Assembly: GCA_900546215.1 (NCBI GenBank)
Contig: URCD01000001.1
Span: 15,540-79,539 of the forward strand
DNA: 64,000 bases
Direction: 5' to 3'
Source: an uncultured Eubacteriales bacterium
Lineage (GTDB): Bacteria; Bacillota; Clostridia; Lachnospirales; Anaerotignaceae
The notes below the pieces were generated by a model that was not told the origin of the DNA, did no database searches, and worked only from the letters and a program-made list of their open reading frames with translations. The position numbers and the translations under genes are program-made. Each line of letters starts with the position of its first letter. Position 1 is the stretch's first letter. This document shows positions 3,196 to 55,580 of the stretch, piece after piece.

Positions 3196-3243
3196 AAAAA
3201 GTATTGTGGTAAGACATATATATAGACAAAGGGGTGAATAAAT

Positions 3244-5526: not shown

Positions 5527-5541
5527 GGGGAGGTATGACAG

Positions 5542-28867: not shown

Positions 28868-29647
28868 TTAAATGCTGGTATAGCCGCCGTCTATATATAT
28901 TATCTGTCCCGTTGTATAGTTTGAAGCCTCCGACGCAAAATAAACAACCATTCCCGCAAGGTCGCAATCAGCGTTGCCGAAACGTTTAACAGGAATATGC
29001 CTGAACATTTCTTCTCTTGTTGCAGGATCCTCGAAAAGTACCTTTGTCATAGCTGTTTCAAAGAAGCCGGGCGCCACTGCGTTTACAGTAATTCCATACT
29101 GTGCCCATTCAACGGCAAGGGCCTTTGTCATCTGCATTACTGCTCCCTTAGCTGCAACATAGGAAACTATATTGGGACGTGCCACAACACGGGCATTAAT
29201 GGACGAAATATTAATAATTTTTCCTTTTATTCCTTTTTCAATCATGTGCTTTCCTACAGCCTGACATGCAAGGAATACGCCTTTAAGCTGTACATCCTGC
29301 ACCTTGTCCCAATCCTCTACTGTATATTCTATAGCGGGCTTTCTTATATTTACGCCTGCGCTGTTTACGAGGATATCAATATGTCCAAGTTTATCAATAA
29401 CCTTTTCTACAAGAGCGTCAACGCCGTCCTTTGTTGAGATGTCAGCTGATATTCCATAGCACTGTCCGCCGGTTTTTTCAGTGATACCGTTTGCCGCCTT
29501 GTCACAGTCAGCCTGATTACGGCTGGATACTACTGCTGCTGCGCCTGCTTCAACAAGCCCCTTGGCGATACCCTCTCCAAGCCCCTTGCTTCCTCCGATT
29601 ACAAGCGCTACCTTACCTTTAAGTGAAAACATGTCCATAACACTCAT
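28868..29647 (-). CDS. SDR-family NAD(P)-dependent oxidoreductase (gluconate-5-dehydrogenase-like)
   Basis: 'VALVIGGSKGLG' Rossmann motif, an 'NSAG' motif and a catalytic YxxxK ('YVAAKGAV'). Confidence 0.8.
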   Translation of the reverse strand: MSVMDMFSLKGKVALVIGGSKGLGEGIAKGLVEAGAAAVVSSRNQADCDKAANGITEKTGGQCYGISADISTKDGVDALVEKVIDKLGHIDILVNSAGVNIRKPAIEYTVEDWDKVQDVQLKGVFLACQAVGKHMIEKGIKGKIINISSINARVVARPNIVSYVAAKGAVMQMTKALAVEWAQYGITVNAVAPGFFETAMTKVLFEDPATREEMFRHIPVKRFGNADCDLAGMVVYFASEASNYTTGQIIYIDGGYTSI

Positions 29648-29769
29648 GATATAATCCTCCTTAATTTCGCTTATTGTTGAAATTTCCCTATTAATTATAA
29701 CACATAGGCATATTGGTGTACATAATTAATTAATAACATAATTATATATAAGCAATTTTTGTGCCAAAT

Positions 29770-29810
29770 ATAAAACAGCCTAAATCCCATACTAGGGATT
29801 TAGGCATGTC
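29770..29810 (-). terminator. Terminator for the sigma/anti-sigma operon (minus strand)
   Basis: gcctaaatccc-atacta-gggatttaggc, with an A-run on the plus-strand left. Confidence 0.6.
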
Positions 29811-29867
29811 TTTGTTTCAAGACTAATTTTGTTGTTAAAACAAAACTGATGTTTTGATTTCACTACT

Positions 29868-31259
29868 TTAATCTAATGTAAATACATATTCGTCCGACAA
29901 TATATAATGTGGAGAGGAAAGTGTGACGCTTCTATAGTCATTTAAATTAATTCTGTCATTTCCAAACGCCGCTTTCCACTGGCCGTTTTCATTTTCGGTC
30001 CAGCTGGCTGTTCCGCCGATATTTTTGCCGTTTATGATTCTAAATCCAATTTCAGATAAATGTATATTGTCCTGCTTGTCAGTAGCAGTAAATTCGATGC
30101 CAATGCTTTCATCCCACTTTTCTGAACCTACTGTCATGTTAGTTATATTCAGGTCTGCATACTTTAAGCTGACTTTTTTAGGAAAATCAATTGTCCCGTC
30201 CTTTTTAACCTTAAAGTTCAAAACTATATCCTCATTATCAAGAACCTCAACAACCGGAACATGAAGCTCTGCCGCGGTTTTTTCTTCATCGGTAAATCCG
30301 TATGAACCAAGGTCGAAATAGAATTCCGTTCCGTCGCCTCCGTTGTAGCCGGCTGGTATTTCCTGTCCGCCGATAACGAGGTACGGCAGTATATCATCGC
30401 CATTTTCCTTTGCGGCGTACTGAATATATCCATATACCTGGGCAAATTCACTGTAGTTGAGAGAATACATCTTTATATAAAGGGTATCATCGTCCCATCT
30501 GGGAACCACTGTCAGCGAAATATTATTTCTCATGGCTGTTGGGCCTATTTGATCAATACTGTCATAGAATTCTATAGGCTTGAGCTTGACGTCAAAGGAA
30601 AGGTCTCCTATTGTAAGGTTTATTGGAAGGTTCACTCCGTATTCCTCTATGGTTTCAATCAAATCTGTTACTCTTACCGTGTTTGTCATCTCCGTCCGGC
30701 TGCCGCCGCCGTAATAATCAGGTGACTCACAGGCTTTACCGGCTACTATGACATCCGGAACAATATTAAAGGACGGGCCAAATGGGCTTCCATTATCTGA
30801 AACTTTTATAAAAGATGATACACCGTTGTCGTCCAGCAATTTTTGAAGGTCATCGGCAGTTGCGTTGTATTTTATATCATCTTCTTTAATGAAATCCAGA
30901 GTTATTTTATATACTATATCCACATTAAAGTCAGATACATAGGCGTTTTCCAATGTGACTGTAACCTTTCCGTCCGTCTGGGTAACGGGGTCGCCGTCCA
31001 TGGAATAAAGTATCCCTGAGGGAGCCCTTGTGGTGTCATTCTGTTCACTTATTGACATACCGGGAATAAATGAAAAGATTTTCTTTATAGCCGCCTGTGC
31101 CGAAGGGGAGTAGCTGACCGCGGTAACTGCTACGGCAAATGCCGCGGCCGCAACTGCCCACCTTCTCCACATAACAGGCTTTTTAGCGGGCTCGTCAGCC
31201 TCTTCAATATAATTTGGGTCTATATTACCAAGTTCCTTATATAAATCTTCTTTTTTCAT
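29868..31259 (-). CDS. Single-pass membrane protein downstream of a sigma factor (DUF4179-like anti-sigma factor with a large extracellular domain)
   Basis: 463 aa. Short cytoplasmic N-terminus, a TM 'WAVAAAAFAVAVTAV', and a long extracytoplasmic domain. ATGA overlap with the sigma-gene stop. Confidence 0.55.
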   Translation of the reverse strand: MKKEDLYKELGNIDPNYIEEADEPAKKPVMWRRWAVAAAAFAVAVTAVSYSPSAQAAIKKIFSFIPGMSISEQNDTTRAPSGILYSMDGDPVTQTDGKVTVTLENAYVSDFNVDIVYKITLDFIKEDDIKYNATADDLQKLLDDNGVSSFIKVSDNGSPFGPSFNIVPDVIVAGKACESPDYYGGGSRTEMTNTVRVTDLIETIEEYGVNLPINLTIGDLSFDVKLKPIEFYDSIDQIGPTAMRNNISLTVVPRWDDDTLYIKMYSLNYSEFAQVYGYIQYAAKENGDDILPYLVIGGQEIPAGYNGGDGTEFYFDLGSYGFTDEEKTAAELHVPVVEVLDNEDIVLNFKVKKDGTIDFPKKVSLKYADLNITNMTVGSEKWDESIGIEFTATDKQDNIHLSEIGFRIINGKNIGGTASWTENENGQWKAAFGNDRINLNDYRSVTLSSPHYILSDEYVFTLD

Positions 31260-31810
31260 ATCTCAATTCCCTCCTTTTCCAAGTATTCTCTTAAGGCAGT
31301 CCTTGTTCTGAAAAGGGATGACTTCACTTTGCCCTGACTTATACCGTATCTTTTTGCAATATCGGATATGGAATCAGAGTGCCAGTATCGCCTGACAAAG
31401 TAAATTCTCGCGTCCTTTTTAATGCCTGACAGAAATAAATTTATGGCTCGGGAAATCTCGCCTTTTTCATAATCTTGCTGCGCTGTCTGGGACGGTATCA
31501 TTTCCTCAACCTCCGAAAGCAGCATATCAAACTGGGAATTTCTTTTTTGGGCCCTGTAATATTCATAGCGGTTTAAAGCAGTTCTTCTGGCAAGCATACC
31601 GAGGTATGTTTTAAGAGGATTTGGCTCTGCGGGAGGTATGGTATTCCATGCCTTTAGATAGGTGTCATTTACCGCTTCCTCACTGTCCTGCCTGTTCTGT
31701 AGTATGTTCATTGATATTTTCCTGCAGTAGGATCCGTATTTGACATTGGTTTCTTCAATGGCGTTTTCCATGCGTCCGATATATAAATCAATTATTTGTT
31801 TGTCGGTCAT
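31256..31810 (-). CDS. Sigma-70 family RNA polymerase sigma factor (ECF-like)
   Basis: Region 2 'EAVNDTYLKAWN' and a region 4 HTH 'ISDIAKRYGISQGKVKSSLFRTR'. Start 31810 is preferred (GAAAGGA with 9-nt spacer). Confidence 0.7.
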   Translation of the reverse strand: MTDKQIIDLYIGRMENAIEETNVKYGSYCRKISMNILQNRQDSEEAVNDTYLKAWNTIPPAEPNPLKTYLGMLARRTALNRYEYYRAQKRNSQFDMLLSEVEEMIPSQTAQQDYEKGEISRAINLFLSGIKKDARIYFVRRYWHSDSISDIAKRYGISQGKVKSSLFRTRTALREYLEKEGIEI

Positions 31811-31893
31811 TATTGTCATTCCTTTCTAAGGGCCCTTCACTAATAAATACAGGAAATGCCGGCGGAGGTTTCATTTATATACTAATTATATCG

Positions 31894-31925
31894 AAAAAAT
31901 TCCGCGGATTATCCGCGGAATATAT
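31894..31925 (-). terminator. Perfect palindrome aattccgcggat/atccgcggaatt: terminator of the ModE-like gene or a protein-binding site
   Basis: 11-bp arms with a 1-nt centre, and an A-run on the plus-strand left side. Confidence 0.4.
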
Positions 31926-31983: not shown

Positions 31984-32355
31984 TTATAGTTCATTACCCA
32001 ATTCAGATATGGGATAAAATGAAAATATATCTTTAATAATACGGTCAGAAGCATCCTCAATTTCAGCGCAGTACTGCCTGTAGGCGGCCATCATTTTTTT
32101 AGCCTCATCGGTTACTTTAGCGCCGCCTCCGCTTTTTCCGCCGGTTGTGGAGCATAAAAGCTTAAACCCTAAATTTTTTTCGCATTCCTTAACAATTTTC
32201 CATGCCTTAGAATAGGCCATGTCCATACTGATAGCGGCTCTGCGGAGCGAGCCATATTCCTCTATCTGCTCCAAAAGGAGGCATATTCCCGGACCGAAGC
32301 ACTTGTCCTCGGTATACAGATGTATTCTAATCTTAGCCTTAAGTTCCTTTTCCAT
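31984..32355 (-). CDS. ModE-N-terminal-like winged-HTH regulator (LysR-type HTH / molybdate-responsive regulator family)
   Basis: 123 aa. 'GSLRRAAISMDMAYSKAWKIV' matches the ModE/LysR HTH. Divergent from yqeC. Confidence 0.55.
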   Translation of the reverse strand: MEKELKAKIRIHLYTEDKCFGPGICLLLEQIEEYGSLRRAAISMDMAYSKAWKIVKECEKNLGFKLLCSTTGGKSGGGAKVTDEAKKMMAAYRQYCAEIEDASDRIIKDIFSFYPISELGNEL

Positions 32356-32413
32356 TGTAAACCCTCCAAAAAAGTGTTATCCTTAGAATAATATAACGGT
32401 GAGGTGTAGGCGT

Positions 32414-33085
32414 ATGCTTTCAGAAATTTTAAATATTAAACCCGGGCTTACCTCAATTATAGGAAGCGGCGGTAAAACAACGCTTATGTACAGTCTTGCC
32501 AAAGAACTGTCAGCGTCAAAAAAGGTCGTTATCTGCACCTTTACAAAAATTTATAAGCCTGAACATATTATAACACTTACAGACCCATCAGAGGAAGATA
32601 TAAAAAATGCACTTTTGGCCAATAACTGTATATGTGTCGGAAAGTTATCCACAGAAGAAAAATTAACAATGCCGGATATTCCTGTGGAAATTTTGCTGAA
32701 ATACGCGGATTATGTAATTTCAGAGGCAGACGGGGCAAAGGGGCTGCCTTTAAAAGCCCATAGGCATTATGAGCCGGTTATCCACAGAAAACCTGTGAAT
32801 ACAATTCAAGTTCTGGGGATAAGTGGCATAAATAAAAAAATTAAGGATGTCTGCCATAGGCCTGAAACATATGCGGAAATAGCCGGAGCGTCAATAAACG
32901 ATAAAGTAACGCCTGAAATGGCCGCCCGTGTGGTCAAAAGGGAAGGTCTATGCGACACGCTTATAATAAACCAGGTGGAAAATGACGATAATATGAAGGA
33001 CGCGGAAAAAATTGCCGCTTATTTGGACATACCGGTTTTTGCCGGAGAAATAAGGAAAGGGGATTTGATATGCTTGCGATTATAA
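32414..33085 (+). CDS. yqeC: Selenium-dependent molybdenum hydroxylase accessory protein YqeC (P-loop protein)
   Basis: About 224 aa. N-terminal P-loop 'IGSGGKTTLMY'. Positioned next to yqeB and selD. ATG 32414 (RBS ggtgaggtg) is preferred over the GTG-extended ORF. Confidence 0.65.
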   Translation: MLSEILNIKPGLTSIIGSGGKTTLMYSLAKELSASKKVVICTFTKIYKPEHIITLTDPSEEDIKNALLANNCICVGKLSTEEKLTMPDIPVEILLKYADYVISEADGAKGLPLKAHRHYEPVIHRKPVNTIQVLGISGINKKIKDVCHRPETYAEIAGASINDKVTPEMAARVVKREGLCDTLIINQVENDDNMKDAEKIAAYLDIPVFAGEIRKGDLICLRL

Positions 33086-33855
33086 AAGGGGCTGGAGACA
33101 TCGCTTCAGGAATAGCACTCAGGCTCAGGCACGCTAAATTTGATGTTGTTATGACAGACTTGAAAAAGCCTACGGCAATCAGACGTACCGTCTGTTTTTC
33201 TCAGGCAATAGTAAACGGAGAAACGGCTGTGGAGGATGTTAAAGCCGAAAAAGCCGATAATACGGACGATATACAGGATATTATAAACAGGGGAAACATT
33301 GCGGTTATAGCCGATGCAGAGGGAGAGTGTATAAAAAAGCTTAAACCCTATTTTCTGATAGACGCTGTATTGGCAAAGAAAAACTTAGGAACGTCAATTG
33401 AGGACGCTCCGGTCGTTATAGGCGTGGGCCCAGGCTTTACCGCCGGTATTGACTGCGATGCTGTTATTGAAACCCAAAGGGGACACTATCTTGGCAGGGT
33501 TATATTAAAGGGAAGTGCTGCTGAGAATACGGGGGTTCCCGGAAATATAGGAGGATATACCACCGAAAGAATAATTAGGGCGGCAAAAGACGGTATTTTT
33601 TCACCCGTCTGCGCCATAGGCGATATTGTGGAGGCCGGTCAGACTGTGGCATATGTTGATGATGAGCCTGTTAAGAGCCAAATCGGCGGAGTGCTCAGAG
33701 GTATTCTGCCTAAGGGAACTCCTGTATTTAAAGGAATGAAAAGCGGCGACGTTGACCCGAGATGTAAAATTGAACACTGCTGGTGCGTATCAGACAAGGC
33801 ATTAGCTGTCGGCGGCGGGGTACTTGAGGCAATGCTTGCGCTGAAGGAGGATTGA
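33070..33855 (+). CDS. yqeB: Selenium-dependent molybdenum hydroxylase system protein YqeB (EF2563 family)
   Basis: 261 aa. 'IIKGAGDIASGIA' N-terminus is typical of the YqeB family. Overlaps the yqeC 3' end by 16 nt and the selD start. Confidence 0.65.
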   Translation: MLAIIKGAGDIASGIALRLRHAKFDVVMTDLKKPTAIRRTVCFSQAIVNGETAVEDVKAEKADNTDDIQDIINRGNIAVIADAEGECIKKLKPYFLIDAVLAKKNLGTSIEDAPVVIGVGPGFTAGIDCDAVIETQRGHYLGRVILKGSAAENTGVPGNIGGYTTERIIRAAKDGIFSPVCAIGDIVEAGQTVAYVDDEPVKSQIGGVLRGILPKGTPVFKGMKSGDVDPRCKIEHCWCVSDKALAVGGGVLEAMLALKED

Positions 33856-33857
33856 AA

Positions 33858-34892
33858 ATGGATGATATAAGGCTTACAAAGCTGGCTGACTGTGCTGGCT
33901 GCGGTGCAAAGGTAGGCGCCGGCGTGCTTGCAAAGCTTCTTGAGGATATAGAGGTGCTTGATGACCCAAACCTGCTGGTTGGATTTGATAAAAGCGACGA
34001 TGCATCAGTATATAAAATAAATAATGAGCAGGCCATTGTCCAGACTGTGGATTTCTTTCCTCCCATATGCGATGACCCATATATATTTGGACAGATTGCG
34101 GCTGCAAATGCCATGTCTGATATATACGCAATGGGCGGACAGCCTAAGCTTGCACTGAATATAATGGCTGTTCCAACGTCTATGAACAAGGAGCATGTCC
34201 ATGCAATCCTAAAGGGCGGATATGAGAAGGTTTACGAGGCCGGGGCGCTGATAACGGGAGGACATTCTATTTATGACAAGGAACCAAAATATGGTCTTTC
34301 AGTGACTGGCTTTGTACATCCGGATAAAATAATTACAAACAGCGGAGCAAGGGAAGGCGATGTGCTTATACTTACAAAGCCAATAGGAATCGGAATTATT
34401 ACAACAGCCGCTAAGGCTGACATGGTATCTGAGGAAGGCCTGCAATTTGTGTATTGCCTTATGTCAACGCTTAATAAGTCGGCGAGGGACATAATGGTCA
34501 AGTACAACGTGCATGCATGTACAGATGTGACAGGCTTCGGACTCATGGGGCATCTTTTGGAAATGGCGCAGGGTTCAGATAAAGCCGCTGTTGTTGATAC
34601 AGAAAATATAGATTATATAAATGAGGCAAAGTTTTTAGCACAAAGTGGTATACTGCCGGAGGGACTTTACCGAAACAGGAGCTACGCGGAAGGATTTGTT
34701 GAACCTGGAAATATAAAGCTTTCAGTGCAGGACATGCTGTTTGATCCCCAGACCTCAGGAGGACTGCTTATCGCGGTTTCTCCAGAGGATGCGGATATGC
34801 TGTTCAATGAGCTGAAGGGAAGGGTGCCAAGCGCCCAAAGGATAGGACATATAGAAAATTATAAGGGCGGAGCTAGGATTATTTTGAGATAA
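33858..34892 (+). CDS. selD: Selenide, water dikinase (selenophosphate synthetase), Cys-type
   Basis: 'DCAGCGAKVGAG' corresponds to the SelD GCGCK active-site loop, with Cys (not TGA) at the catalytic position. AIR-synthase-like fold motifs are present. RBS gaaggagg 7 nt upstream. Confidence 0.8.
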   Translation: MDDIRLTKLADCAGCGAKVGAGVLAKLLEDIEVLDDPNLLVGFDKSDDASVYKINNEQAIVQTVDFFPPICDDPYIFGQIAAANAMSDIYAMGGQPKLALNIMAVPTSMNKEHVHAILKGGYEKVYEAGALITGGHSIYDKEPKYGLSVTGFVHPDKIITNSGAREGDVLILTKPIGIGIITTAAKADMVSEEGLQFVYCLMSTLNKSARDIMVKYNVHACTDVTGFGLMGHLLEMAQGSDKAAVVDTENIDYINEAKFLAQSGILPEGLYRNRSYAEGFVEPGNIKLSVQDMLFDPQTSGGLLIAVSPEDADMLFNELKGRVPSAQRIGHIENYKGGARIILR

Positions 34893-34952: not shown

Positions 34953-35669
34953 GTGAAGGAATATAAATTTGCAGTTAAAAAGGTTCTGCCTGTGCTGTTT
35001 TCATATATATTTATCGGAATCGCAAGCGGGCTTTTGCTTAGGGATGCGGGATACTCATTCATTTGGGCGCTCCTTTCAGGAATGTTTGTATACGCCGGCT
35101 CCATGCAGATAGTTATGGTACCTCTTCTTGCAGCCAAAACCCCGATATGGCTTTTGGCTGTGATGACGCTGTTCATAAACGCACGGCATATTTTTTACGG
35201 AATTGGCTTTATAGATGAGTTTAAGGAAATAAAGAAGCGTTGTTTTTGGAAATATCCTTATATGATATTAACTGTAACGGATGAAACCTACTCAATACTT
35301 TGCTCACTTGACTGCCCAAAGGAATATGACAGGCTTAATGTGGAATTTTACATACTTTGCACAACGCATATTTTATGGATAGTAAGCTGTACGCTTGGCT
35401 CCATTATTGGAAACGTAATACCGTTTGACACGACTGGCATAGATTTTTCGGCTACCGCATTTTTTATATGTATTGTAGTGGACCAATGGAAGCAGTTTAA
35501 ATCCCATATCCCTGCTGTGACAGGGGCTGTAAGCGCCGCTGTATTCTATTTTATTTTAGGAGCTGAGAGCTTTCTTCTTCCTGCGCTTTCCATAAGCGCA
35601 CTTGTCCTTGTTTTAATGAAGGACAGGGTCAGAGTGAAAATGATGAGGGGAGAGGTTGCAAATGAATGA
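34953..35669 (+). CDS. azlC: AzlC-family branched-chain amino acid exporter subunit
   Basis: 238 aa, multi-TM, with an AzlC N-terminal pattern. GTG start. Confidence 0.65.
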   Translation: MKEYKFAVKKVLPVLFSYIFIGIASGLLLRDAGYSFIWALLSGMFVYAGSMQIVMVPLLAAKTPIWLLAVMTLFINARHIFYGIGFIDEFKEIKKRCFWKYPYMILTVTDETYSILCSLDCPKEYDRLNVEFYILCTTHILWIVSCTLGSIIGNVIPFDTTGIDFSATAFFICIVVDQWKQFKSHIPAVTGAVSAAVFYFILGAESFLLPALSISALVLVLMKDRVRVKMMRGEVANE

Positions 35670-35997
35670 CGCTGTATTCACGGCTTTATCTATAGCAGTA
35701 ATAGCTTTAACGACATGGCTGTGCCGTGCATTTCCTTTTATATTATTTTCGGGGAAACGTAATATACCGGAAACAATTTCCTACTTAGGAGGAGTGCTTC
35801 CGGCGGCTATTATGATAATTCTGGTAATATATTGTCTCAGAAATGTGGATCTTATAAATTATCCGCACGGGCTTGCGGAAATTGTTTCTATAGCCGTTAT
35901 TGTTTTTCTCCAATGGAAGAAGGGCAATACAATTCTTACCATAGTTGTGGGCACTGTTTTATATATGACTTTAATACGAACTGTATTTCCGATATAA
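35656..35997 (+). CDS. azlD: AzlD-family branched-chain amino acid exporter small subunit
   Basis: 113 aa hydrophobic protein overlapping the azlC end. Confidence 0.65.
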   Translation: MQMNDAVFTALSIAVIALTTWLCRAFPFILFSGKRNIPETISYLGGVLPAAIMIILVIYCLRNVDLINYPHGLAEIVSIAVIVFLQWKKGNTILTIVVGTVLYMTLIRTVFPI

Positions 35998-36031
35998 AAT
36001 GGCCGAAGCATAAGCTTCGGCCATTTTTTTA
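35996..36031. terminator. Bidirectional terminator (azlD / dehydrogenase convergent)
   Basis: aaatggccgaagc-ataa-gcttcggccattt followed by ttttttt. Confidence 0.7.
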
Positions 36032-36940
36032 GATTTCCAGCTTGCCAATGGTAACGGCTAGCTTCTCAGCTATAGTATCAAGCCTTGATTTTTGCTCGCC
36101 TATAAGCTGCGGCATTTCATAGCTTTTTATTCCATTGCATCCAACTGCCACAGGTACTCCGAAAGATACGCCGCTGTAGCCGTATTCTCCCTCAAGCACT
36201 GAGGAGCATTCAAGAACCTTGCCTGAGTCGGTCGCAACTGCCTCAATAAGCTCCTCAATGTTTATTGACGATGCCCAGCCTGATGTTCTTCCGCAGTCAA
36301 GGGCAGAAAACTGGACAAAAAAATTCGACGTAATGCTTTCAATTTCCTCTATCTGCTGGTCAGACAGGTTAAGAGGTTTTTTGCCGCATGTCATTTTATC
36401 ATAGAGATTTATCTGCCCATTGCCGTGCTCGCCTATACAGAAGCCGTCAAGCTCCTTGAAATCCCGTCCGGTAACCTTAGAGGCGGCCCACTTAAGGCGG
36501 TAGGTATCATTTCCGTTGAAACCTAAGATTTTTTTCCTGTCCCAGCCTAAAATTTTATATATTACATAATTAAAAATGTCGACAGGATTTGTAGCATTAA
36601 TGATTACGGCTTCTGAGCAATTGGCCTTTATCTGCTCGCAGATGGGCTTAACTATTTTCATATTATCACGGAGATATTCCATTCTGTCCTCAACCCTGCG
36701 TTCAGGAATGCTGGCGGTTATAAGAATTATGCCGCAGTCCGCCAAATCGCTGTAGCTTCCAAAGGAAATTTTTGTTTTAGAGGCGCTGTATACGGCCTGT
36801 CCCATATCCATTACGTGGTTTTTAACCAAATTTTCCTTTATATCCACCAGCTTTATTTCTTCCAGATAACCCTTCATCCCCGCGAGAAAAGCTGAAGTCG
36901 AGCCTAACAGCCCCGCACCTCCAATTACACCAAGTTTCAT
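36029..36940 (-). CDS. Lactate/malate dehydrogenase family NAD-dependent 2-hydroxyacid dehydrogenase
   Basis: 'MKLGVIGGAGLLGSTSAFLAGM' Rossmann motif, 'ITASIPERR' and a 'GEHGN' substrate/catalytic loop. Confidence 0.7.
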   Translation of the reverse strand: MKLGVIGGAGLLGSTSAFLAGMKGYLEEIKLVDIKENLVKNHVMDMGQAVYSASKTKISFGSYSDLADCGIILITASIPERRVEDRMEYLRDNMKIVKPICEQIKANCSEAVIINATNPVDIFNYVIYKILGWDRKKILGFNGNDTYRLKWAASKVTGRDFKELDGFCIGEHGNGQINLYDKMTCGKKPLNLSDQQIEEIESITSNFFVQFSALDCGRTSGWASSINIEELIEAVATDSGKVLECSSVLEGEYGYSGVSFGVPVAVGCNGIKSYEMPQLIGEQKSRLDTIAEKLAVTIGKLEI

Positions 36941-37654: not shown

Positions 37655-40606
37655 TTAAAGCAAATAACCGTACTCGTTTTTTACCGTTAAAATTATTGTC
37701 TCAATATTTTTGTCCAGTGTGTTGTTTTCAGAAAGGTCATAATCATTTACCTCTCCGTTTATGCGAACCTTATATTTGTTTTCTCCGAGAGGCAGAAATC
37801 CGTTGTTTTCACTGTCACGGAAGTCCTCTGCGCTGTTAAACAGCGTAAGCTTATCCTTATAGGGTGCGCTGTCATAGGGACAGAAGGTTTTGCAGTTTCC
37901 GCACTCGTTGCACATACGGTCAACATGCAGTATCTGTGCGCCCATTCCCTTTGGCTTAATAATGACGTTGGCCCTGTTGGGGCATACGTCTGCGCAGCAT
38001 TCGCACACAACATTGCAGGAAAGACATCTGTCACCCTCGCATGAGGAAGGCATTTTCAATATTCCCTTTTTCGCCGCGGCTGACTCCTCACATTCATGCG
38101 CGCAGTCGGGGATAACGGCTTCAATGGGTGCATTTGCCACAGCCTTTGCAAATTCTTTGGCATCGGCTATACACTCAACAACCGTAGAGGGCCCCCTAAG
38201 TGCGTCGCCTGCAGCATATACTCCGTCAATATTTGTTTTAAATTCGGGACGGCCTTTTTTGTTTACATCTATGCCCTGGGTTTTAAAGAAGTCTCCGTCA
38301 ACGCCCTCACCGACAGCGGCTATTACTGTGTCGGCATTTATATATATCAGCTCGTCTGTCTCAACGGGGCTTCTTCTTCCGCTTTCATCAGGGTCGCCCA
38401 ATACCATTTTTCTGGCAGTCAGTATGCCGTGGGACTGGCACACTGGAGCGGCAAGCTCAATAAATTCCACTCCGTCGTGTATAGCCAGCATAAGTTCCTC
38501 AGTGTCGGCCGGCATATATTTTTTTGTGCGCCTGTATACAATTGCCACATTTTCTACGCCATCTGCCCGCTTTGCGGCCCTTGCGGCGTCCATTGCCGTG
38601 TTTCCTCCGCCGATAACGGCCACGTTTTTACCAAGCTCAATATTTTTACCGGACTTTAAGTCTCTTAAAAATTCAATTACATTTAACACATTACCATCAA
38701 TATCAAGCTTTCCGGGCTTTTCAGCGCCAACACAGTAAAGTATATGAGTGTAGCCCTTGCCTTTAAGCTCAGAAAGTGAAGGGGCGGGAGTATTCAGTTT
38801 GATTTCAGCGCCCATTTTTTCAATGAGGTCCGTGTCCTTTTCTATAGATTCATCGCTTATTCTGAAGGCGGGTATTACATTCCTTACAATTCCGCCAAGC
38901 CTGGCTTCCTTCTCGTAGACTGTTGTCCTGATACCGCTTTTGCCTAAGAAGTATGCGGCCGCCATACCGGCCGGCCCTCCCCCTACAATAGCGGCCTTGG
39001 CCTTTGATACGGGTTCAGGGGCCTTTAAATTTTTCATTATCTCATCATAGCCGTTTTCCGCCGCCGTAAGCTTCTCCGCGCGTATCATTACAGGCTCTTC
39101 ATAGAAATTCCTTGTGCATTTGTCCATACAGTGATGGGCGCATATGGTTCCGGTTATGAAGGGCAGAGGGTTTTTATCAGTAATAACCTTAAGTGCGTCA
39201 GCATATTTTCCCTGCCTGCACAGCTCTATATATTCAGGGATATCCTGCCCAATTGGACAGCCGCCCTTGCAAGGCGCTGTGAAGCAGTCTGTAAGGGGAA
39301 CCTTTTTATCCAGCTTTCTTTTAGGCAGAGGCTTGATTGGCTTTATATGATGTATGTCAGATTTAGCTGATTCGGAAAGTTCAGATGTCTTTGCGCAGTC
39401 CACACCTGAAAACGGATTAAACGGACAGGCCTCAAGCTTTTGGGCAAGTTGTGTAAGCCTCTGGTAGCCTCCAGGCTTGAGTATTGTCGTAGCGACAGTT
39501 ATAGGCCATATCCCGGCTTCAAATAACTTATCTATGTTGAAATAATCAGCGCCGCCCGAATAGCTGATACGCATCTTTCCACCAAACTGGGCAGCAATTC
39601 GGTTTGCCATTTCAATAGTAAGCGGATAAAGTGCCTTGCCGCTCATATACATTTCCTCAGAAGGAAGCTCTCCTGCCTTTACGTCTACCGGGAATGTGTT
39701 TGAAAGCTTCAGTCCAAATTCCAAACCATTGTCATCTGCAAGCCTTTTAAGCCTTGTAAACATAGGTACAGCATCCTCATACTGCAAATCCTCGTTAAAA
39801 TGGTGCTCGTCAAAGGCAATGTAGTCATAGCCCATATCATCCAGGGTTTTTCTTGCATAGTCATAACCAAGAATTGTTGGATTGCATTTTACAAAGGTAT
39901 GCAGATGCTTTTCTGTAATCAGATAAGATGCTATGCGCTCAATTTCCTGCGGAGGACAGCCGTGCAGTGTGGATAAGGTAACGCTTGTGCATACTTTGGG
40001 CGTAATACTTTCTATATGTTCTGCTTCGGAAGGAAAATATTTTTTAAGAACTGACTTGTATTCATTCCACTGGGGAAGCCTTGAGGCGTCCTTAAGCCCT
40101 TCTATAAAATTATCAATTTTTTCACTCTTTATGCCTTCAAGGTCATAGCCTACGCTCATATTAAAAATAAACCCGTCAGATGAGCCAAGGCCAAATGCCT
40201 TTGAGAATACCTTAAGCGCAAGCCATGCCTTTACGTACTCGTCAAGCGCCTGCCAGACCAGAAGCTCGGTGGACCATTCGCAGTTGTAGCCTTCGTCCTC
40301 CGCCAGTATACACGGCCTTGCTATACACGCCGCAAGCTCCTCGCCGTCCATTATCTGTACTGTTTTAAGCTCGAAAAACCTGCTTCCGGCAAAATAGGCT
40401 GCGATTATGTTCTGCGCGAGCTGTGTGTTGGGGCCGGCCGCCGGGCCGAACGGCGTTTCCATGCTTTCTCCAAATATAGAAAGCGTTTTATTATCTTTTT
40501 TTATGTAGGGGCGCTGTACGCCAAACATTTTTCCGGTGCTATTGTATTCCGTTACCGCCCAGTTTATAAGCCTGTCAAAGGGAATGGGCGTCATTCGTTC
40601 ACTCAT
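37655..40606 (-). CDS. ygfK: YgfK-like large Fe-S flavoprotein (dihydropyrimidine-dehydrogenase-like TIM barrel + GltD-like FAD/NAD(P) domain + ferredoxin domain; 'putative selenate reductase subunit YgfK' family)
   Basis: 983 aa. GltD-like 'CKGGCPIGQDIPEYIELCRQGKYADALKV', dinucleotide fold 'AIVGGGPAGMAAAYFL', and C-terminal 4Fe-4S motifs 'CLSCNVVCECCADVCPN' and 'CNECGNCKTFCP'. Confidence 0.7.
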   Translation of the reverse strand: MSERMTPIPFDRLINWAVTEYNSTGKMFGVQRPYIKKDNKTLSIFGESMETPFGPAAGPNTQLAQNIIAAYFAGSRFFELKTVQIMDGEELAACIARPCILAEDEGYNCEWSTELLVWQALDEYVKAWLALKVFSKAFGLGSSDGFIFNMSVGYDLEGIKSEKIDNFIEGLKDASRLPQWNEYKSVLKKYFPSEAEHIESITPKVCTSVTLSTLHGCPPQEIERIASYLITEKHLHTFVKCNPTILGYDYARKTLDDMGYDYIAFDEHHFNEDLQYEDAVPMFTRLKRLADDNGLEFGLKLSNTFPVDVKAGELPSEEMYMSGKALYPLTIEMANRIAAQFGGKMRISYSGGADYFNIDKLFEAGIWPITVATTILKPGGYQRLTQLAQKLEACPFNPFSGVDCAKTSELSESAKSDIHHIKPIKPLPKRKLDKKVPLTDCFTAPCKGGCPIGQDIPEYIELCRQGKYADALKVITDKNPLPFITGTICAHHCMDKCTRNFYEEPVMIRAEKLTAAENGYDEIMKNLKAPEPVSKAKAAIVGGGPAGMAAAYFLGKSGIRTTVYEKEARLGGIVRNVIPAFRISDESIEKDTDLIEKMGAEIKLNTPAPSLSELKGKGYTHILYCVGAEKPGKLDIDGNVLNVIEFLRDLKSGKNIELGKNVAVIGGGNTAMDAARAAKRADGVENVAIVYRRTKKYMPADTEELMLAIHDGVEFIELAAPVCQSHGILTARKMVLGDPDESGRRSPVETDELIYINADTVIAAVGEGVDGDFFKTQGIDVNKKGRPEFKTNIDGVYAAGDALRGPSTVVECIADAKEFAKAVANAPIEAVIPDCAHECEESAAAKKGILKMPSSCEGDRCLSCNVVCECCADVCPNRANVIIKPKGMGAQILHVDRMCNECGNCKTFCPYDSAPYKDKLTLFNSAEDFRDSENNGFLPLGENKYKVRINGEVNDYDLSENNTLDKNIETIILTVKNEYGYLL

Positions 40607-40668: not shown

Positions 40669-42006
40669 TCAGAGGCTGTAGTTTATATTCTTCCAAAGCT
40701 TTTTGGCTGTCTCAAGAATTTTAGAGTTTATCTCTTCCTCATCTATATCAATAAGCTGTCTGTTATGCATAAGTATTTTTCCGTTTGCAACAGTTGTAAG
40801 GCACTGCCTGCCGTTCATTCCGAATATCATGTGACCGTCAATGTTGTCGGCTGAAAAAGGAGTGTACGGCTTATAGTCCATAACTATAATGTCCGCCGCG
40901 GCTCCCGACTTTAAAACGCCAAGCGGTTCGTCAAAATATCTGGCGCATATTTTTGCGTTGTTCGTAAACAGCATTCCTGTAGCTTCAGCCCAGCCGACAT
41001 TAGGCATTTTTGCGTTATGTCGCTGGATTGCGAGCGCCGCCTTAAGGCTTTCAAGCATATCGTGGGTATAGGCGTCTGTACCAAGGCCGATAAGTATTCC
41101 CCTGTTGTAAAGATTAAGTACTGGAGAACAGCCAACGGCGTTGCCCATATTGGATTCAGGATTATTCACCACCATAGTGTCGCTTTCTCTGATTATGTTC
41201 ATTTCCCTGTCGTTTACATGTATACAGTGGCCAAGTATTGTTTTGGGGCCGAGTATATTCATGTCCCTAAGCCTTTCAACAGGACGTTTTCTGTGTTTTT
41301 CCCATGTATCCTGTACGTCGTTTATGCCCTCGGATACATGTATATGAAAGCCTGTCATACCGTTATTCGCCTCAACGCATTTTTCAAGCGTTCTATCCGA
41401 AAGGGTAAACAGCGCATGCAGTCCAAACATAGCCTTCAGCATGCAGTCTGGCTCGTCTGCCGTATGCTTTATAAAGTCGTAGTTTTCCTTAATGGCCTGA
41501 TTTGCTTTTACCTCGCCGTCCCTGTCGCTTACCTCATAGCAAAGACAGCTTCTTATGCCCATTTCCTTAGCAACGTCCGCAATTTCAAAAAGTGAGGATG
41601 GAATATATCCATAGCTTGCGTGATGGTCAAATATGGTGGTAACGCCATTTTTAATGCATTCTATGTAGGTTGCATATGCCGAGGCTCTGGTGCCCTCCAA
41701 ATCCAGCTTTCTGTCGATATTCCACCACATTCCCTCCAGTATTTCATAGAAATTTCTTGGGTTATAGCCGTTTATTGAAAGACCCCTTGCGAGGGCGCTG
41801 TATATATGAGTATGAGTGTTGATAAAGGCAGGCATTATTACGTTGCCCTCCGCGTCTATTATCTCTGCGTTGGGATATTTCAGCTTAAGGGTAAGGTCGT
41901 CGCCGACTTCCACAATTTTATTGCCCTCAACAGCAACTCCGCCGTCCTCGTAATATGGGTTATCACTGTCTCGGGTAATAACTTTTCCGTTTGTAATCAG
42001 ATACAT
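40669..42006 (-). CDS. ssnA: SsnA-like amidohydrolase (chlorohydrolase/aminohydrolase family associated with Se-dependent Mo hydroxylases)
   Basis: Amidohydrolase metal ligands 'INTHTHIY', 'HASYG' and 'GTDA'. Start 42006 (GGGAGGAA RBS) is preferred over the 26-codon N-terminal extension. Confidence 0.65.
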   Translation of the reverse strand: MYLITNGKVITRDSDNPYYEDGGVAVEGNKIVEVGDDLTLKLKYPNAEIIDAEGNVIMPAFINTHTHIYSALARGLSINGYNPRNFYEILEGMWWNIDRKLDLEGTRASAYATYIECIKNGVTTIFDHHASYGYIPSSLFEIADVAKEMGIRSCLCYEVSDRDGEVKANQAIKENYDFIKHTADEPDCMLKAMFGLHALFTLSDRTLEKCVEANNGMTGFHIHVSEGINDVQDTWEKHRKRPVERLRDMNILGPKTILGHCIHVNDREMNIIRESDTMVVNNPESNMGNAVGCSPVLNLYNRGILIGLGTDAYTHDMLESLKAALAIQRHNAKMPNVGWAEATGMLFTNNAKICARYFDEPLGVLKSGAAADIIVMDYKPYTPFSADNIDGHMIFGMNGRQCLTTVANGKILMHNRQLIDIDEEEINSKILETAKKLWKNINYSL

Positions 42007-42693: not shown

Positions 42694-43725
42694 ATGATAA
42701 GATTTAACAACGACTACAGCGAGGTGGGACATGAGCGCATACTTAAAAAGCTCGCCGATATAAGCGGTACTCAGGTATGCGGCTATGGCGAGGATGAGTA
42801 TTGCAGGGAGGCTGCCGATATAATTAGGAACCTTATCGGAAAGGCCGATGCGGACGTACATTTTCTTGTCGGAGGCACACAGGCAAACCTTACGGTTATC
42901 TCGGCGGCTTTAAGACCCCACCAGTGCGCTCTATGTGCCCAAACGGGACATATAAACGTGCATGAGACAGGCGCGATAGAGGCAGTGGGACATAAATGCA
43001 TGGCAATTAAAACGAAGGACGGGAAGCTTACAGCGGAAATGGTGCGAAGGGTGCACAAAGACCATTGGGCAGACGGTTCGCATGAGCACATAGCGCAGCC
43101 GAAGCTTGTTTATATATCCAATTCAACTGAAATCGGAACAATATACAAAAAGGCTGAGCTGGAGGAGCTTTACAGGGCGTGCAGGGAATGCGGGCTTTAT
43201 CTGTTTATGGACGGCGCAAGGCTTGGCTACGCGCTGGCAAGCAGCGAAAATGATTTGGATTTAAAGACAATCGCCGACAACTGCGACGTTTTTTACATAG
43301 GAGGAACAAAGGGCGGAGCAATGTTCGGAGAGGCCGTTGTTATTATGAATGAGGCTTTAAAGGAAGATTTCAGGTATATAATTAAGCAGAAGGGCGGAAT
43401 GCTTGCAAAGGGCTGGCTTCTGGGCATCCAGTTCAGTGAGCTTTTAAGGGACGGCCTTTATTTTGAGCTGGCGCAGCATGCCGACAGGCTGGCTGATAAA
43501 ATTAAAGATGCCGTTAAAGAGGCCGGTTATCCGTTTTATTCTGAAAGTCCCACAAATCAGCAGTTTGTTATTTTCCCCGACAGCCTTATTGAGAAGCTCT
43601 CGGAGAAATATGTGCTTTCATATCAGGAGAGAATTGATGAAAGCCACAGCGCTGTCAGGATATGTACAAGCTGGGCGACAAAAGAGGAAAATGTGGATAT
43701 GCTGATTAAGGATATAATGGGTTGA
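42694..43725 (+). CDS. Low-specificity L-threonine aldolase (beta-eliminating lyase family, PLP-dependent)
   Basis: 343 aa. 'IRFNNDYSEVGHERIL', and 'GGTKGGAMFGEAVV' fits the PLP lysine region of threonine aldolases. RBS ggaggt. Confidence 0.7.
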   Translation: MIRFNNDYSEVGHERILKKLADISGTQVCGYGEDEYCREAADIIRNLIGKADADVHFLVGGTQANLTVISAALRPHQCALCAQTGHINVHETGAIEAVGHKCMAIKTKDGKLTAEMVRRVHKDHWADGSHEHIAQPKLVYISNSTEIGTIYKKAELEELYRACRECGLYLFMDGARLGYALASSENDLDLKTIADNCDVFYIGGTKGGAMFGEAVVIMNEALKEDFRYIIKQKGGMLAKGWLLGIQFSELLRDGLYFELAQHADRLADKIKDAVKEAGYPFYSESPTNQQFVIFPDSLIEKLSEKYVLSYQERIDESHSAVRICTSWATKEENVDMLIKDIMG

Positions 43726-44961: not shown

Positions 44962-45063
44962 AATTGGGCGGCGGCATAAACATTGACTTCTTTAACCATT
45001 GTGTTACTATTAAATGTAATCTGCTTTTAAATAAATCAGTAAATGGATATAAAGGAGACTGCA

Positions 45064-46335
45064 ATGCCAGACATTATAACAAAATTTGGACAGCATATTA
45101 ATAAAGAAATTGTAAAGAACCCTGATATGGCAAGAAAAGAGCTTCTTTTAGGCTATAGAACATTTAACCTCAAAATGAGATACGCTCCTGACAAACGGCT
45201 TTCACCTGCCAGAAAATATCTGGGCAAGGTGTGCATGGACGAGCATATAAAGTCCTTTGCGCATGCTGATAACTCGGCATTGGTAAGTGTGTTTCTTCCA
45301 TGTGAAATAATACACGCCTTTGGCCTTAACACAATATTTGCCGAGGGCTTTGCCGGATATATGACGGGAGCCTACGCTGAAAAGGCCTTTGTTGAGGCCG
45401 CGGAGGCTGAAGGAATAGCCGAAACCTACTGCTCCTACCATAAAATTCTGATGGGCGCGGCATTTACCCAGGTACTGCCGAAGCCTAAGTTTATTATAAA
45501 TACGTCAATTGTATGCGACGCGAATAATCTTACATTCAGGGCCCTGGCCGACTATTATGGTGTTCCGCAGTTTTACGTTGACGTACCGACAGCGGCAGAC
45601 GAGGAAAGCGTTAAATATGTCGCAGAGCAGCTTAAAGAGATGACAGCCTTTATTGAACGACAGACGGGTAAAAAGCTCGACGAATCCGTCCTTAAAGCGT
45701 CCGTAGCAAGGACAAGGGACTCTATAAACAACTTTAAAGAATGTCTTGAGCTTAAAAAGAACACATATTTAGCCAACGATATTACAAGCGAGATGTATGA
45801 GGTTTTTGCAACGCACCCGCTTTTTGGAACAGAGGAAACCCTTAAATATTCGCAGATGCTTGTTGAGGATTTAAAAAATGCGGAGCCTAAAAGGGGAATA
45901 AGGCTGCTGTGGATGCATACGATACCTTATTTTCAGGAGCCGCTCAGGGACAGGCTTAATTTCAATGAAAAGTGCCAGATTATAAGCTGCGACATGAACT
46001 TTGAAAACCTTGTTGAGACAGACCCCGAAAAGCCCTACGAGAGCATGGCGCGGCGTATTGTTATGAGCAGCTTTAACGGTTCTGCAGAAAACAGGATAAA
46101 TAAGGCCGCAGAGATAGCTGAAAGCCTTGGCGCCGACGGCGTAATTTATTTTTGCCATTGGGGCTGCAAGCAGACGATGGGCGCGGCGGTAAACGCGAAG
46201 AAAAAGCTGGAGGAAAGGGGTTTCCCAACGCTTGTGTTAAACGGCGACGGAGGGGACAGAAGAAATACCAGCGACGGGCAGATACTTACAAGGCTTGACG
46301 CTTTTATAGAAATGCTGGAGGATATGAAAAAATGA
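45064..46335 (+). CDS. 2-Hydroxyacyl-CoA dehydratase family protein (HgdA/HadB/FldB-like component D subunit)
   Basis: 'CSYHKI', 'VCDANN' and 'GVIYFCHWGCKQT' are the HGD-D family cysteine-ligand motifs. Start at the internal Met after the AAAGGAGA RBS. Coordinates are uncertain by +/-1 nt: my reading of the sequence text places the RBS-adjacent ATG one base later than the ORF track implies. Confidence 0.65.
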   Translation: MPDIITKFGQHINKEIVKNPDMARKELLLGYRTFNLKMRYAPDKRLSPARKYLGKVCMDEHIKSFAHADNSALVSVFLPCEIIHAFGLNTIFAEGFAGYMTGAYAEKAFVEAAEAEGIAETYCSYHKILMGAAFTQVLPKPKFIINTSIVCDANNLTFRALADYYGVPQFYVDVPTAADEESVKYVAEQLKEMTAFIERQTGKKLDESVLKASVARTRDSINNFKECLELKKNTYLANDITSEMYEVFATHPLFGTEETLKYSQMLVEDLKNAEPKRGIRLLWMHTIPYFQEPLRDRLNFNEKCQIISCDMNFENLVETDPEKPYESMARRIVMSSFNGSAENRINKAAEIAESLGADGVIYFCHWGCKQTMGAAVNAKKKLEERGFPTLVLNGDGGDRRNTSDGQILTRLDAFIEMLEDMKK

Positions 46336-54340: not shown

Positions 54341-54382
54341 CCACGATAGAATATTAATATCTGCTTTGGGCGACCAAAGCTC

Positions 54383-54612
54383 TGATAGAGGCGCAGAAAA
54401 AATCAGTATTGCGGAACAATGGCGGGCGGCCGTTCTGCTTGAAAGGGTTTTCTGCCGAAGCTTGTTTGTTCTGCCCGGGACAAGCTGGCTGGGACGATGC
54501 ATAACATGCAGCGTACTGTCACTTATGTGGAGAGCTATCATAAAACCTTATGATTTGTTTTATCAGTGCCGAATCTTCACTTGAGCAGAGGAATATTCGG
54601 CACTTTTTATTT
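54383..54612 (+). promoter_or_regulatory. Lysine riboswitch (L-box) aptamer plus intrinsic terminator expression platform
   Basis: L-box consensus blocks are present in order: GATAGAGGCGC, AGTATTGC, GAAAGGG, GCCGAAG, ACTGTCA, TGGAGAGCTATC. They are followed by the terminator gtgccgaat...attcggcac plus a T-run (54563-54612), 30 nt before the transporter start. Confidence 0.75.
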
Positions 54613-54646
54613 GTATTAAAATTTTACATTAAAGGAAGGTATGAAC

Positions 54647-55540
54647 ATGAAGAAAAAGTTATTTTCAGTAGCAGCATTAGCGATGGCTTGTACAGTCGCA
54701 TTGGCAGGCTGCTCATCAAAATCAAACGAAACATCAAATGAAGACTCAGGAAAACAGCAGACAGCGGCTGACGGTGAAGGCGCGGCAGCAGACAACGTAC
54801 TCACAGTAGCAATGGAATGCGGATACGCTCCATATAACTGGACACAGCCGACAGACCAGAACGGAGCAGTTCAGATTAAGGACAGCCCCGACTATGCTTA
54901 CGGATATGACGTAATGATGGCAAAGCATATTGCTGAGGAGCTTGGCATGGAGCTTGAAATCGTTAAGCTTGACTGGGATTCACTTGTACCAGCAGTTCAG
55001 TCGGGAACAGTAGACTGTGTTATCGCAGGACAGTCAATCACATCTGAAAGACTTGAAATGGTAGACTTTACAGAGCCTTACTACTATGCTTCAATCGTTA
55101 CGCTTACAAAGGCAGACAGCCCCTACGCAGACGCTGCAAGTGTAGCTGACCTTGCCGGCGCAACATGTACTTCACAGCAGAACACAATATGGTATAACGT
55201 TTGCCTCCCTCAGATTCCCGATGCAAACATTCTTCCTGCACAGGAATCAGCTCCGGCTATGCTTGTTGCGCTTGACGCAGGCAAATGCGACATCGTTGTA
55301 ACAGACCAGCCTACAGGGCTTGCGGCTACAGTAGCATATCCTGACTTCAAGCTTCTTGACTTTACAGGCACAGAGGGCGAATTTGAAGTATCAGATGAAG
55401 AAATCAATATCGGTATCTCTCTTCAGAAGGGCAATACAGAGCTTCTTGACAAAATCAACGGCGTACTTTCCACTATGACACCTGATGACTATGTTCAGCT
55501 GATGAACGAGGCTATATCTGTTCAGCCCCTCAGCGAGTAA
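54647..55540 (+). CDS. Amino-acid ABC transporter substrate-binding lipoprotein (probably lysine-specific, given the riboswitch)
   Basis: Lipobox 'LAGCSS' and a family-3 SBP fold pattern. Start 54647 (aaggaagg, 7-nt spacer). Confidence 0.75.
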   Translation: MKKKLFSVAALAMACTVALAGCSSKSNETSNEDSGKQQTAADGEGAAADNVLTVAMECGYAPYNWTQPTDQNGAVQIKDSPDYAYGYDVMMAKHIAEELGMELEIVKLDWDSLVPAVQSGTVDCVIAGQSITSERLEMVDFTEPYYYASIVTLTKADSPYADAASVADLAGATCTSQQNTIWYNVCLPQIPDANILPAQESAPAMLVALDAGKCDIVVTDQPTGLAATVAYPDFKLLDFTGTEGEFEVSDEEINIGISLQKGNTELLDKINGVLSTMTPDDYVQLMNEAISVQPLSE

Positions 55541-55580
55541 TTTATAATATTTTGCGCCAGACAGAAAGGAGAGAGCTAAA

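Follow-up and report, generated by a model that had tools for sequence, protein, structure and literature searches.

Loci in which selD, the gene of selenophosphate synthetase, is found together with yqeB, yqeC and genes of the xanthine dehydrogenase (XDH) family form a signature defined in 2008 (Haft & Self, PMC2276186; Zhang et al. 2008) for a selenium-cofactor trait, that of molybdenum hydroxylases which depend on selenium (SDMH). This trait occurs in 312 of ~5,200 bacterial genomes (~6%), mainly from anaerobic, host-associated organisms and often alongside the use of selenium in selenocysteine (Sec) or selenouridine (SeU) (PMC5029168), and members of the YqeB family TIGR03309 are confined to selD-positive genomes (PMC2276186). 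Here we describe positions 31984 to 34892 of a 64,000-nucleotide stretch of DNA (hereafter the window) from an uncultured Eubacteriales bacterium. The region holds yqeC, yqeB and selD and, divergent from them, a gene coding for a short helix-turn-helix (HTH) protein. We assign to it, with a probability of about 0.8, the function of a selenium-cofactor maturation module inside a purine-catabolism island of an uncultured Clostridia bacterium. Of the three ways in which bacteria use selenium, its insertion into molybdenum hydroxylases is understood least, and the selenium-dependent enzymes drive urate breakdown by gut bacteria, a process relevant to gout and hyperuricaemia.

The closest described SDMH loci are those of Enterococcus faecalis (EF2563-EF2582) and Escherichia coli (ygeV-ygfO) (PMC2276186). 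The locus studied here shares with them the three marker families together with TIGR03311, TIGR03315 and TIGR03314. As in E. faecalis, selD is physically linked to yqeB and yqeC, and the organism is, like ~80% of SDMH carriers, a host-associated anaerobe of the Firmicutes. The gene order differs, being here a tightly coupled yqeC-yqeB-selD. The regulators differ also, a short ModE-N-like protein and an extracytoplasmic function (ECF) sigma/anti-sigma pair being encoded here in place of the sigma-54 activators YgeV or DioR. The ygfJ/mocA gene (TIGR03310) and the TIGR03527 sulfurtransferase-like gene of SDMH loci are not in the window.

Genetic data are available for Clostridioides difficile, whose growth on xanthine or urate requires yqeB and selD while yqeC is dispensable; its yqeB deletion phenocopies selD mutants on selenium-dependent substrates, not on hypoxanthine (PMC11448449). 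The genes described here belong to the same three families and have the same predicted role in selenium-dependent use of xanthine and urate. In C. difficile, a cultured and tractable organism with the Sec trait, the three genes lie apart from one another, yqeB having a SigL promoter, whereas here they form one overlapping operon in an uncultured organism. XdhAC of Clostridium sporogenes acts as a 2,8-dioxopurine dehydrogenase and depends on selenium, the enzyme purified from a selD mutant having no activity, and YgfK of the same species is an NADPH:2,8-dioxopurine oxidoreductase; YqeBC and SelD are present in every gut strain with a urate cluster (10.1101/2025.04.24.650524). The window resembles the C. 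sporogenes 2,8-dioxopurine pathway in coding for an XdhAC-type enzyme, YgfK, SsnA, a separate XdhABC, YqeBC and SelD. It differs in that the cluster is surrounded, in this lineage, by conserved genes for lactate dehydrogenase (LDH)-like, pyridoxal phosphate (PLP) aldolase-like, short-chain dehydrogenase/reductase (SDR) and 2-hydroxyacyl-CoA-dehydratase-like proteins.

A sequence-only reading of the window had proposed the four genes of the region, an overlap of 16 nt between yqeC and yqeB, and a yqeB stop codon adjacent to the start of selD. The open reading frames (ORFs) were confirmed at these positions (Table 1), as were both junctions: yqeC and yqeB share 16 coding nucleotides, and 2 nt separate the TGA of yqeB (33853-33855) from the ATG of selD at 33858. 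This ATG, with a GGAGG ~7 nt upstream, is favoured over the TTG at 33852; the start of yqeC is probably the ATG at 32414. The gene caller used on an identical metagenomic contig selected the same two ATG codons. The genes yqeC, yqeB and selD are one translationally coupled operon.

Profile searches, proposed by the same reading as a check, place all three products above the curated NCBI equivalog cut-offs. YqeC scores 158.7 bits against TIGR03172 (cut-off 73) and 122.9 bits against Pfam PF19842, YqeB 358.7 bits against TIGR03309 (cut-off 220) with positions 2-255 of the 256 profile positions covered, and SelD 405.9 bits against TIGR00476 (cut-off 125). SelD carries the N- and C-terminal AIRS domains PF00586 and PF02769 and matches E. 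coli SelD (3U0O) with E=7e-70. Its loop C-A-G-C-G-A-K aligns over G-A-G-C17-G-C19-K20 of 3U0O, retaining the equivalents of the catalytic Cys17 and Lys20 with Cys19 replaced by Ala; the cysteine pointed out earlier in this GCGCK-like loop is the Cys17 equivalent. No in-frame TGA is found in selD. Cys-type SelD is encoded by every cluster-linked copy examined except that of locus L011, whose N-terminal loop was unreadable. In L011, a metagenome-assembled genome (MAG) of Family XIII, the SelD homologue near yqeB is part of a longer ORF (1903-3255, + strand) with an N-terminal extension, and its Cys-loop was missed by the simple pattern used on the other SelD copies.

The selenium-dependent XDH, XdhABC, YgfK and SsnA encoded in the window match their families at the same equivalog level as YqeC, YqeB and SelD. 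The markers of the SDMH trait are present, namely YqeB, YqeC, SelD and neighbouring XDH-family hydroxylases, the latter being contiguous with the module in the related loci L005, L006 and L008. The earlier interpretation of the region as an SDMH maturation module is correct, but such modules are already established and the locus is an ordinary copy, a further example from an organism not in culture that gives no new access to the problem of selenium insertion. What is mildly new are the family-level inferences on fold and conservation of YqeB and YqeC and a candidate lineage-specific regulator with its operator.

The sequence-only reading had called selD 'orphan' after noticing no selA, selB, tRNA-Sec or in-frame TGA in the window. 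These absences were borne out by scans of the window: ARAGORN finds no tRNA in the 64-kb window, a lysine riboswitch is the sole Rfam match, all large ORFs have family assignments, none of them to SelA or SelB, and the candidates of a mechanical scan for TGA-interrupted genes in the window are non-coding frames or ordinary gene ends. The term itself is overstated because it describes a property of the whole genome that a 64-kb window cannot establish. For Haft & Self an orphan SelD is one from a genome with neither Sec nor a selenouridine system. In current usage it is a SelD without any known trait (PMC5029168), and the selD described here, linked to a known selenium-cofactor trait, is not orphan in that sense.

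It may be that this selD serves also a Sec system (selA, selB, tRNA-Sec) and/or a selenouridine system (selU/ybbB) encoded elsewhere in the genome, the module being real and selD not 'orphan'; we give this somewhat less than an even chance. Selenium traits overlap significantly, all three being found in 96 of the 312 organisms with the selenium-cofactor trait (PMC5029168), and both C. difficile and C. sporogenes combine it with Sec. In the distant locus L039 (Clostridiales bacterium DTU023) a tRNA-Sec is encoded at 8484-8580 (+ strand), 1.4 kb upstream of yqeB; the selenium-cofactor trait thus coexists with Sec elsewhere, and in other lineages the two may even be physically linked. The evidence gathered here covers 64 kb of one genome. 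A dedication of selD to the cofactor is favoured by the lack of tRNA, selA, selB and TGA-interrupted genes, which speaks for the window only, and by the coupling of selD to yqeB rather than to selA/selB in an arrangement kept throughout the lineage, which speaks for the locus only.

Sequence searches identified no solved structure homologous to YqeB or YqeC. Structure prediction assigns confidently to YqeB a Rossmann-like domain and a biotinyl-like barrel, its carboxyl-terminal domain being predicted to have the barrel-sandwich hybrid fold of biotinyl/lipoyl carrier domains. Conservation was analysed in 39 YqeB homologues (41-94% identity) and 29 YqeC homologues, with an overall range of 25-94% identity. 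The invariant residues of YqeB are G7-x-G9-D10, R38, E134-T-Q-R-G-H-Y140, K224, D227, D229-P-R231, S241, K243 and E253. This pattern favours a phosphate- or nucleotide-bearing ligand, which would be a dinucleotide cofactor or selenophosphate. No cysteine is invariant among the 39 homologues, making a relay of selenium through a YqeB cysteine perselenide unlikely; Cys129 and Cys237, the candidates considered for such a relay, appear invariant in a shallow alignment (at least 63% identity) but less than 90% conserved in the diverse set. The invariant M223-K224 resembles the 'MKM' motif of the biotin carboxyl carrier protein; in a manual alignment, however, it falls off the biotinyl-Lys hairpin, where carrier domains have the modifiable Lys of their (A/V)MKM motif.

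YqeB of the window is the short 261-residue form and lacks the XdhC-like amino-terminal half of E. coli YqeB. No sequence match to XdhC was detected for it, nor did XdhC rank among its top fold matches. A 355-residue YqeB homologue with 56% identity (P0002), found on an NCBI contig, has a score near that of a near-identical match; it is possibly a fusion protein or a form with an extension.

YqeC is confidently predicted to be a P-loop NTPase of the SIMIBI class: it has the predicted fold of that class, and both Walker motifs, A and B, are recognisable. Its invariants are limited to Walker A, the ExDG motif and P121 among the 29 diverse homologues, in which no cysteine or histidine is invariant and no metal-binding motif of UreG/HypB type is found; YqeC thus lacks the metal-binding Cys/His motifs of G3E proteins. 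N186, at least 90% conserved, is part of an NQVE/NKVE motif rather than the NKxD of G3E GTPases. The CobW/HypB/UreG domain PF02492 is found in some YqeC homologues. On this evidence YqeC is not a member of the G3E metallochaperones, though we read it as an NTPase of the delivery type. It could be a nucleotide-gated helper in delivery or assembly, which would fit its dispensability in C. difficile. The fold assignments of YqeB and YqeC narrow the plausible chemistry and point to residues for mutation.

XdhC and NifS4 sulfurate the molybdenum cofactor (Moco) of Rhodobacter xanthine dehydrogenase, the chaperone holding the cofactor while the chalcogen is installed and before insertion into the apo-enzyme. 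The G3E/SIMIBI NTPases UreG, HypB and MeaB gate the delivery of metallocentres. The module is likely built on a similar logic, YqeC having a predicted SIMIBI fold and YqeB being fused to XdhC in some species. The chalcogen differs, selenium from selenophosphate here and sulfur from a cysteine desulfurase in the Rhodobacter XdhC system.

We privilege the following sequence of events. SelD, whose catalytic Cys and Lys are present, would convert selenide and ATP to selenophosphate, an activity established for its family. YqeB would use selenium derived from selenophosphate to turn the Moco of XDH-family hydroxylases into its labile, selenium-ligated form, in keeping with C. difficile yqeB being as necessary as selD; the clients here would be the XdhAC-type enzyme and XdhABC. 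The predicted Rossmann-like domain of YqeB, with its invariant GxGD, may bind a nucleotide-bearing ligand, most plausibly the dinucleotide cofactor or else selenophosphate, and the predicted barrel, with its many invariant Arg, His, Lys and Asp residues, may present it. YqeC would probably gate or speed the hand-over of the cofactor by nucleotide hydrolysis, as UreG, HypB and MeaB do, without being strictly essential. Through the matured hydroxylases, urate and xanthine would enter the YgfK/SsnA pathway, whose genes lie 2.7 kb downstream.

Part of these observations would be compatible also with YqeB and YqeC being general factors of Moco maturation or insertion, XdhC-like and MobB-like, that take no part in selenium handling; shared clients would then explain why they are linked to selD, and selenium would be delivered by another protein. 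YqeB has no family-wide invariant cysteine, in E. coli and Haloarcula its domain forms a single protein with an XdhC-like maturation factor (PMC2276186), the predicted fold of YqeC is that of generic delivery NTPases, and either protein alone may serve processes unrelated to selenium (PMC5029168). We find this explanation quite unlikely, however, as TIGR03309 is restricted to genomes with selD (PMC2276186), the yqeB deletion mimics loss of selD specifically on selenium-dependent substrates (PMC11448449), and selD begins here right after the yqeB stop. A selenium-specific function of YqeB and YqeC is therefore preferred. The earlier statement that their roles have never been shown biochemically still holds, no report on the biochemistry or structure of either protein being found in the searchable literature; genetic evidence, which that reading did not take into account, is available from the C. 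difficile mutants (PMC11448449).

The product of the gene divergent from yqeC had been described from its sequence as a ModE-like regulator. Its score of 58.1 bits against TIGR00637 (ModE_repress) is below the cut-off of 98.5. Its significant matches are 2IJL, a short ModE-like protein of Agrobacterium with a solved structure (E=4.5e-10), and 1B9M, E. coli ModE, in its N-domain (E=3e-6), while NCBIfam and Pfam searches find no Mop/TOBE molybdate-binding domain in its 123 residues. The divergent gene and the ModE-N-like character of its product are thus retained from that description, and the protein is not ModE proper. Its resemblance to ModE and 2IJL is to their amino-terminal winged helix, and it is probably a dimer that recognises a dyad operator; unlike ModE it has no di-Mop domain and cannot sense molybdate in the ModE manner.

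The start codons of the HTH gene and yqeC are 58 nt apart. The intervening gap is nearly filled by the dyad GTTAT-N12-ATAAC, which is kept at the equivalent position in L002-L006 and L008 and seems to resemble ModE boxes only loosely. The HTH protein probably binds this dyad; its dimer may autoregulate the HTH gene and control yqeC-yqeB-selD, as a lineage-specific candidate regulator. The HTH gene is followed by a terminator-like hairpin, which makes it monocistronic. A scan for sigma-70 promoters in the gap revealed nothing convincing, with a total count no higher than in shuffled sequences. The divergent gap measures 55-74 nt among relatives whose HTH proteins are 60-67% identical, with the exception of L003 (429 nt), where a full dyad beside yqeC persists despite a 370-bp insertion. 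The L003 spacer (8916-9344; 429 bp versus ~58) contains an insertion with two direct copies of a ~70-nt GC-rich repeat, possibly a small element of repetitive or mobile nature; the HTH gene retains a dyad half-site beside it and the full dyad lies beside yqeC.

A refined dyad pattern has two sites in the window, against 0.31 expected per shuffled window: 32376-32397 and 3116-3137, the latter in the divergent intergenic region between the genes of the selenium-dependent XDH (SeXDH) and xdhA. This second element is absent from the equivalent place in L005, L006 and L008 and, being unconserved in relatives, may be due to chance. A regulon of the HTH protein was sought with a looser pattern, which shows no enrichment across the window (4 occurrences, 2.9 expected), and the site at 3116 is left as a weak lead.

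It is rather doubtful that the HTH gene is a bystander, or codes for a molybdate-responsive ModE governing molybdenum uptake, with the dyad reflecting AT-rich overlapping core promoters. That would account for the 32 of 39 yqeB loci that have no HTH neighbour, the resemblance of the dyad halves to -10 boxes, the lack of enrichment of the loose pattern and the lack of conservation of the site at 3116 in relatives. Molybdate sensing as in ModE is however impossible without a Mop domain, and no molybdate transporter genes are nearby. Furthermore, the divergent arrangement with a short gap holds in spite of the divergence of the HTH proteins, and the yqeC-side dyad outlasts the insertion in L003. 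A function of the HTH protein as regulator of the module is thus the reading that we retain.

Table 1. Features in and around the selenium-cofactor maturation module (positions in the window)
Feature	Position	Strand	Remarks
Fused 2Fe-2S and Mo-binding hydroxylase, XdhAC architecture, no FAD domain	479-3070	-	TIGR03311 'selenium-dependent xanthine dehydrogenase', 1363.7 bits (cut-off 830), full length
Second, weaker dyad-like element	3116-3137		GTTATTCT-N9-GATAAT; in the divergent spacer of the hydroxylase operons
xdhA-xdhB-xdhC, three-subunit xanthine dehydrogenase (Mo, FAD, 2Fe-2S)	3244-6908	+	NF043082 1261, NF043083 444, NF043084 257 bits, all above cut-offs
SDR, DUF4179 anti-sigma-like and ECF-like sigma genes	28868-31819	-	Kept directly upstream of the HTH gene by every close relative
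Terminator-like hairpin	31899-31921	-	10-bp stem then T run, after the HTH gene
HTH gene, ModE-N-like	31984-32355	-	123 aa; TIGR00637 58.1 bits, Pfam HTH_1 30.5 bits
Candidate operator dyad	32376-32397		Overlaps both core promoters; conserved in L002-L006 and L008
yqeC, P-loop NTPase accessory protein	32414-33085	+	223 aa from ATG; alternative GTG start at 32399
yqeB, selenium-dependent molybdenum cofactor maturation protein	33070-33855	+	261 aa
selD, Cys-type selenophosphate synthetase	33858-34892	+	344 aa from ATG; TTG 33852 is the mechanical ORF start
azlC/azlD	34953-35997		Inserted straight after selD, no obvious terminator; likewise in L004
LDH/malate dehydrogenase (MDH)-like dehydrogenase	36029-36940	-	Follows selD in all close relatives
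Nucleotidyltransferase	36956-37627		Extra relative to related loci
ygfK, NADPH:2,8-dioxopurine oxidoreductase homologue (older name 'putative selenate reductase subunit')	37655-40606	-	TIGR03315 1340.8 bits (cut-off 835)
ssnA, amidohydrolase of the urate/2,8-dioxopurine pathway	40669-42006	-	NF005540 656 bits, TIGR03314 578 bits; 445-aa start according to the gene caller on L001
LURP-one-related protein	42187-42657		Extra relative to related loci
PLP Beta_elim_lyase/threonine-aldolase-like protein	42694-43725		Accompanies the selenium module in all close relatives
2-hydroxyacyl-CoA-dehydratase-like protein with fused activase	45043-47981		Accompanies the selenium module in all close relatives

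Both hydroxylases are likely clients of the module. The fused enzyme is likely selenium-dependent and, from the likeness of its architecture to C. sporogenes XdhAC, a candidate 2,8-dioxopurine dehydrogenase; XdhABC is likely the second client.

The comparative set comprises 39 yqeB loci, that of the identical metagenomic contig (L001) and 38 related ones. Identical YqeB is encoded on many metagenomic contigs, e.g. ENA ERZ1310737. Among the nearest species-representative genomes, identity is 94% to YqeB of an uncultured Eubacteriales MAG (L002), 82-83% to that of Clostridia/Clostridiales MAGs, 78% to that of Ca. Metalachnospira and 77% to that of the isolate Anaerotignum sp. MSJ-24. The source organism, represented by metagenomes and MAGs only, is a gut or anaerobic-digester Clostridia whose nearest MAGs are labelled Eubacteriales, Ca. 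Metalachnospira and Anaerotignum. The order of the HTH gene (- strand) and the divergent yqeC-yqeB-selD (+ strand) is kept in L002-L006 and L008. Within 10 kb of yqeB, yqeC is found in ~25 and selD in ~14 of the 38 related loci.

A complete and compact cluster of 15 genes is present in L005, L006 (Ca. Metalachnospira) and L008 (Anaerotignum), in which hydroxylases, module and ssnA-ygfK are contiguous. Its order is SeXDH; xdhABC; SDR, anti-sigma, sigma and HTH genes; yqeC-yqeB-selD; LDH-like and PLP-aldolase-like genes; ssnA-ygfK; 2-hydroxyacyl-CoA-dehydratase-like gene. By comparison the window differs by two insertions, one of 21.9 kb and one of azlCD, and by inversion of the aldolase-ssnA-ygfK segment, and is thus a less compact, disrupted form of the cluster. 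The 21.9-kb block (6909-28867) codes for an enolase-type dehydratase, a BMP-type ABC transporter, an ADP-forming acyl-CoA ligase, an adenosine deaminase, two crotonases, HelD, an ABC exporter accompanied by a sigma factor of its own, a GGDEF protein, a QueG-like protein and MarR; none of its genes was recognised as belonging to a mobile element. The proposal of the sequence-only reading that this is a compact model locus does not survive the comparison, the hydroxylases being separated from the module by an insertion that relatives lack, in an organism that is uncultured, and cultured, tractable models being already available in C. difficile, C. sporogenes and E. faecalis.

Several observations weigh against the assignment of the region as a regulated maturation module of a purine-catabolism island. 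The hydroxylases lie 25 kb from yqeC-yqeB-selD, and hyuA, ygeW, ygeX, ygeY, yqeA, mocA/ygfJ, xdhC and Moco biosynthesis genes are absent from the 64-kb window. Labile non-Sec selenium that is needed for hydroxylase activity has been shown in other organisms only, and deletion of yqeC in C. difficile gave no phenotype (PMC11448449). Concerning regulation, yqeC has no recognisable sigma-70 -35 element, an HTH gene is beside yqeB in only 7 of the 39 loci (L001 included), all close relatives, and the operator assignment rests on fairly close relatives, among which conservation of the dyad is possibly neutral.

The markers of the 2,8-dioxopurine pathway found in the window are 3 of 7 (XdhAC-type enzyme, YgfK and SsnA), while the published criterion (10.1101/2025.04.24.650524) is at least 4 of 7, the other four being HyuA, YgeW, YgeX and YgeY, with at least 46% identity asked of XdhAC relative to the C. 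sporogenes protein (EDU35963.1). The missing canonical urate genes may reflect a lineage-specific variant of the pathway, or they may be located elsewhere in the genome. A more ambitious interpretation joins these elements: an undescribed, Mop-less ModE-N-like regulator acting on the dyad, possibly with the ECF sigma/anti-sigma pair, would control the operon, and the same lineage would run a variant purine pathway in which the LDH-like, PLP-aldolase-like, SDR and 2-hydroxyacyl-CoA-dehydratase-like proteins would replace YgeW, YgeX, YgeY, HyuA and YqeA. Selenium would pass directly from selenophosphate to a dinucleotide cofactor bound to YqeB with no perselenide intermediate, as hinted at by the lack of an invariant Cys and by the GxGD site. 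Taken as a whole this combination is speculative and the odds are clearly against it.

Further along the window, the lysine riboswitch (RF00168, 94.4 bits) is found at 54378-54545 (+ strand), upstream of an amino-acid ABC transporter operon (54641-57145).

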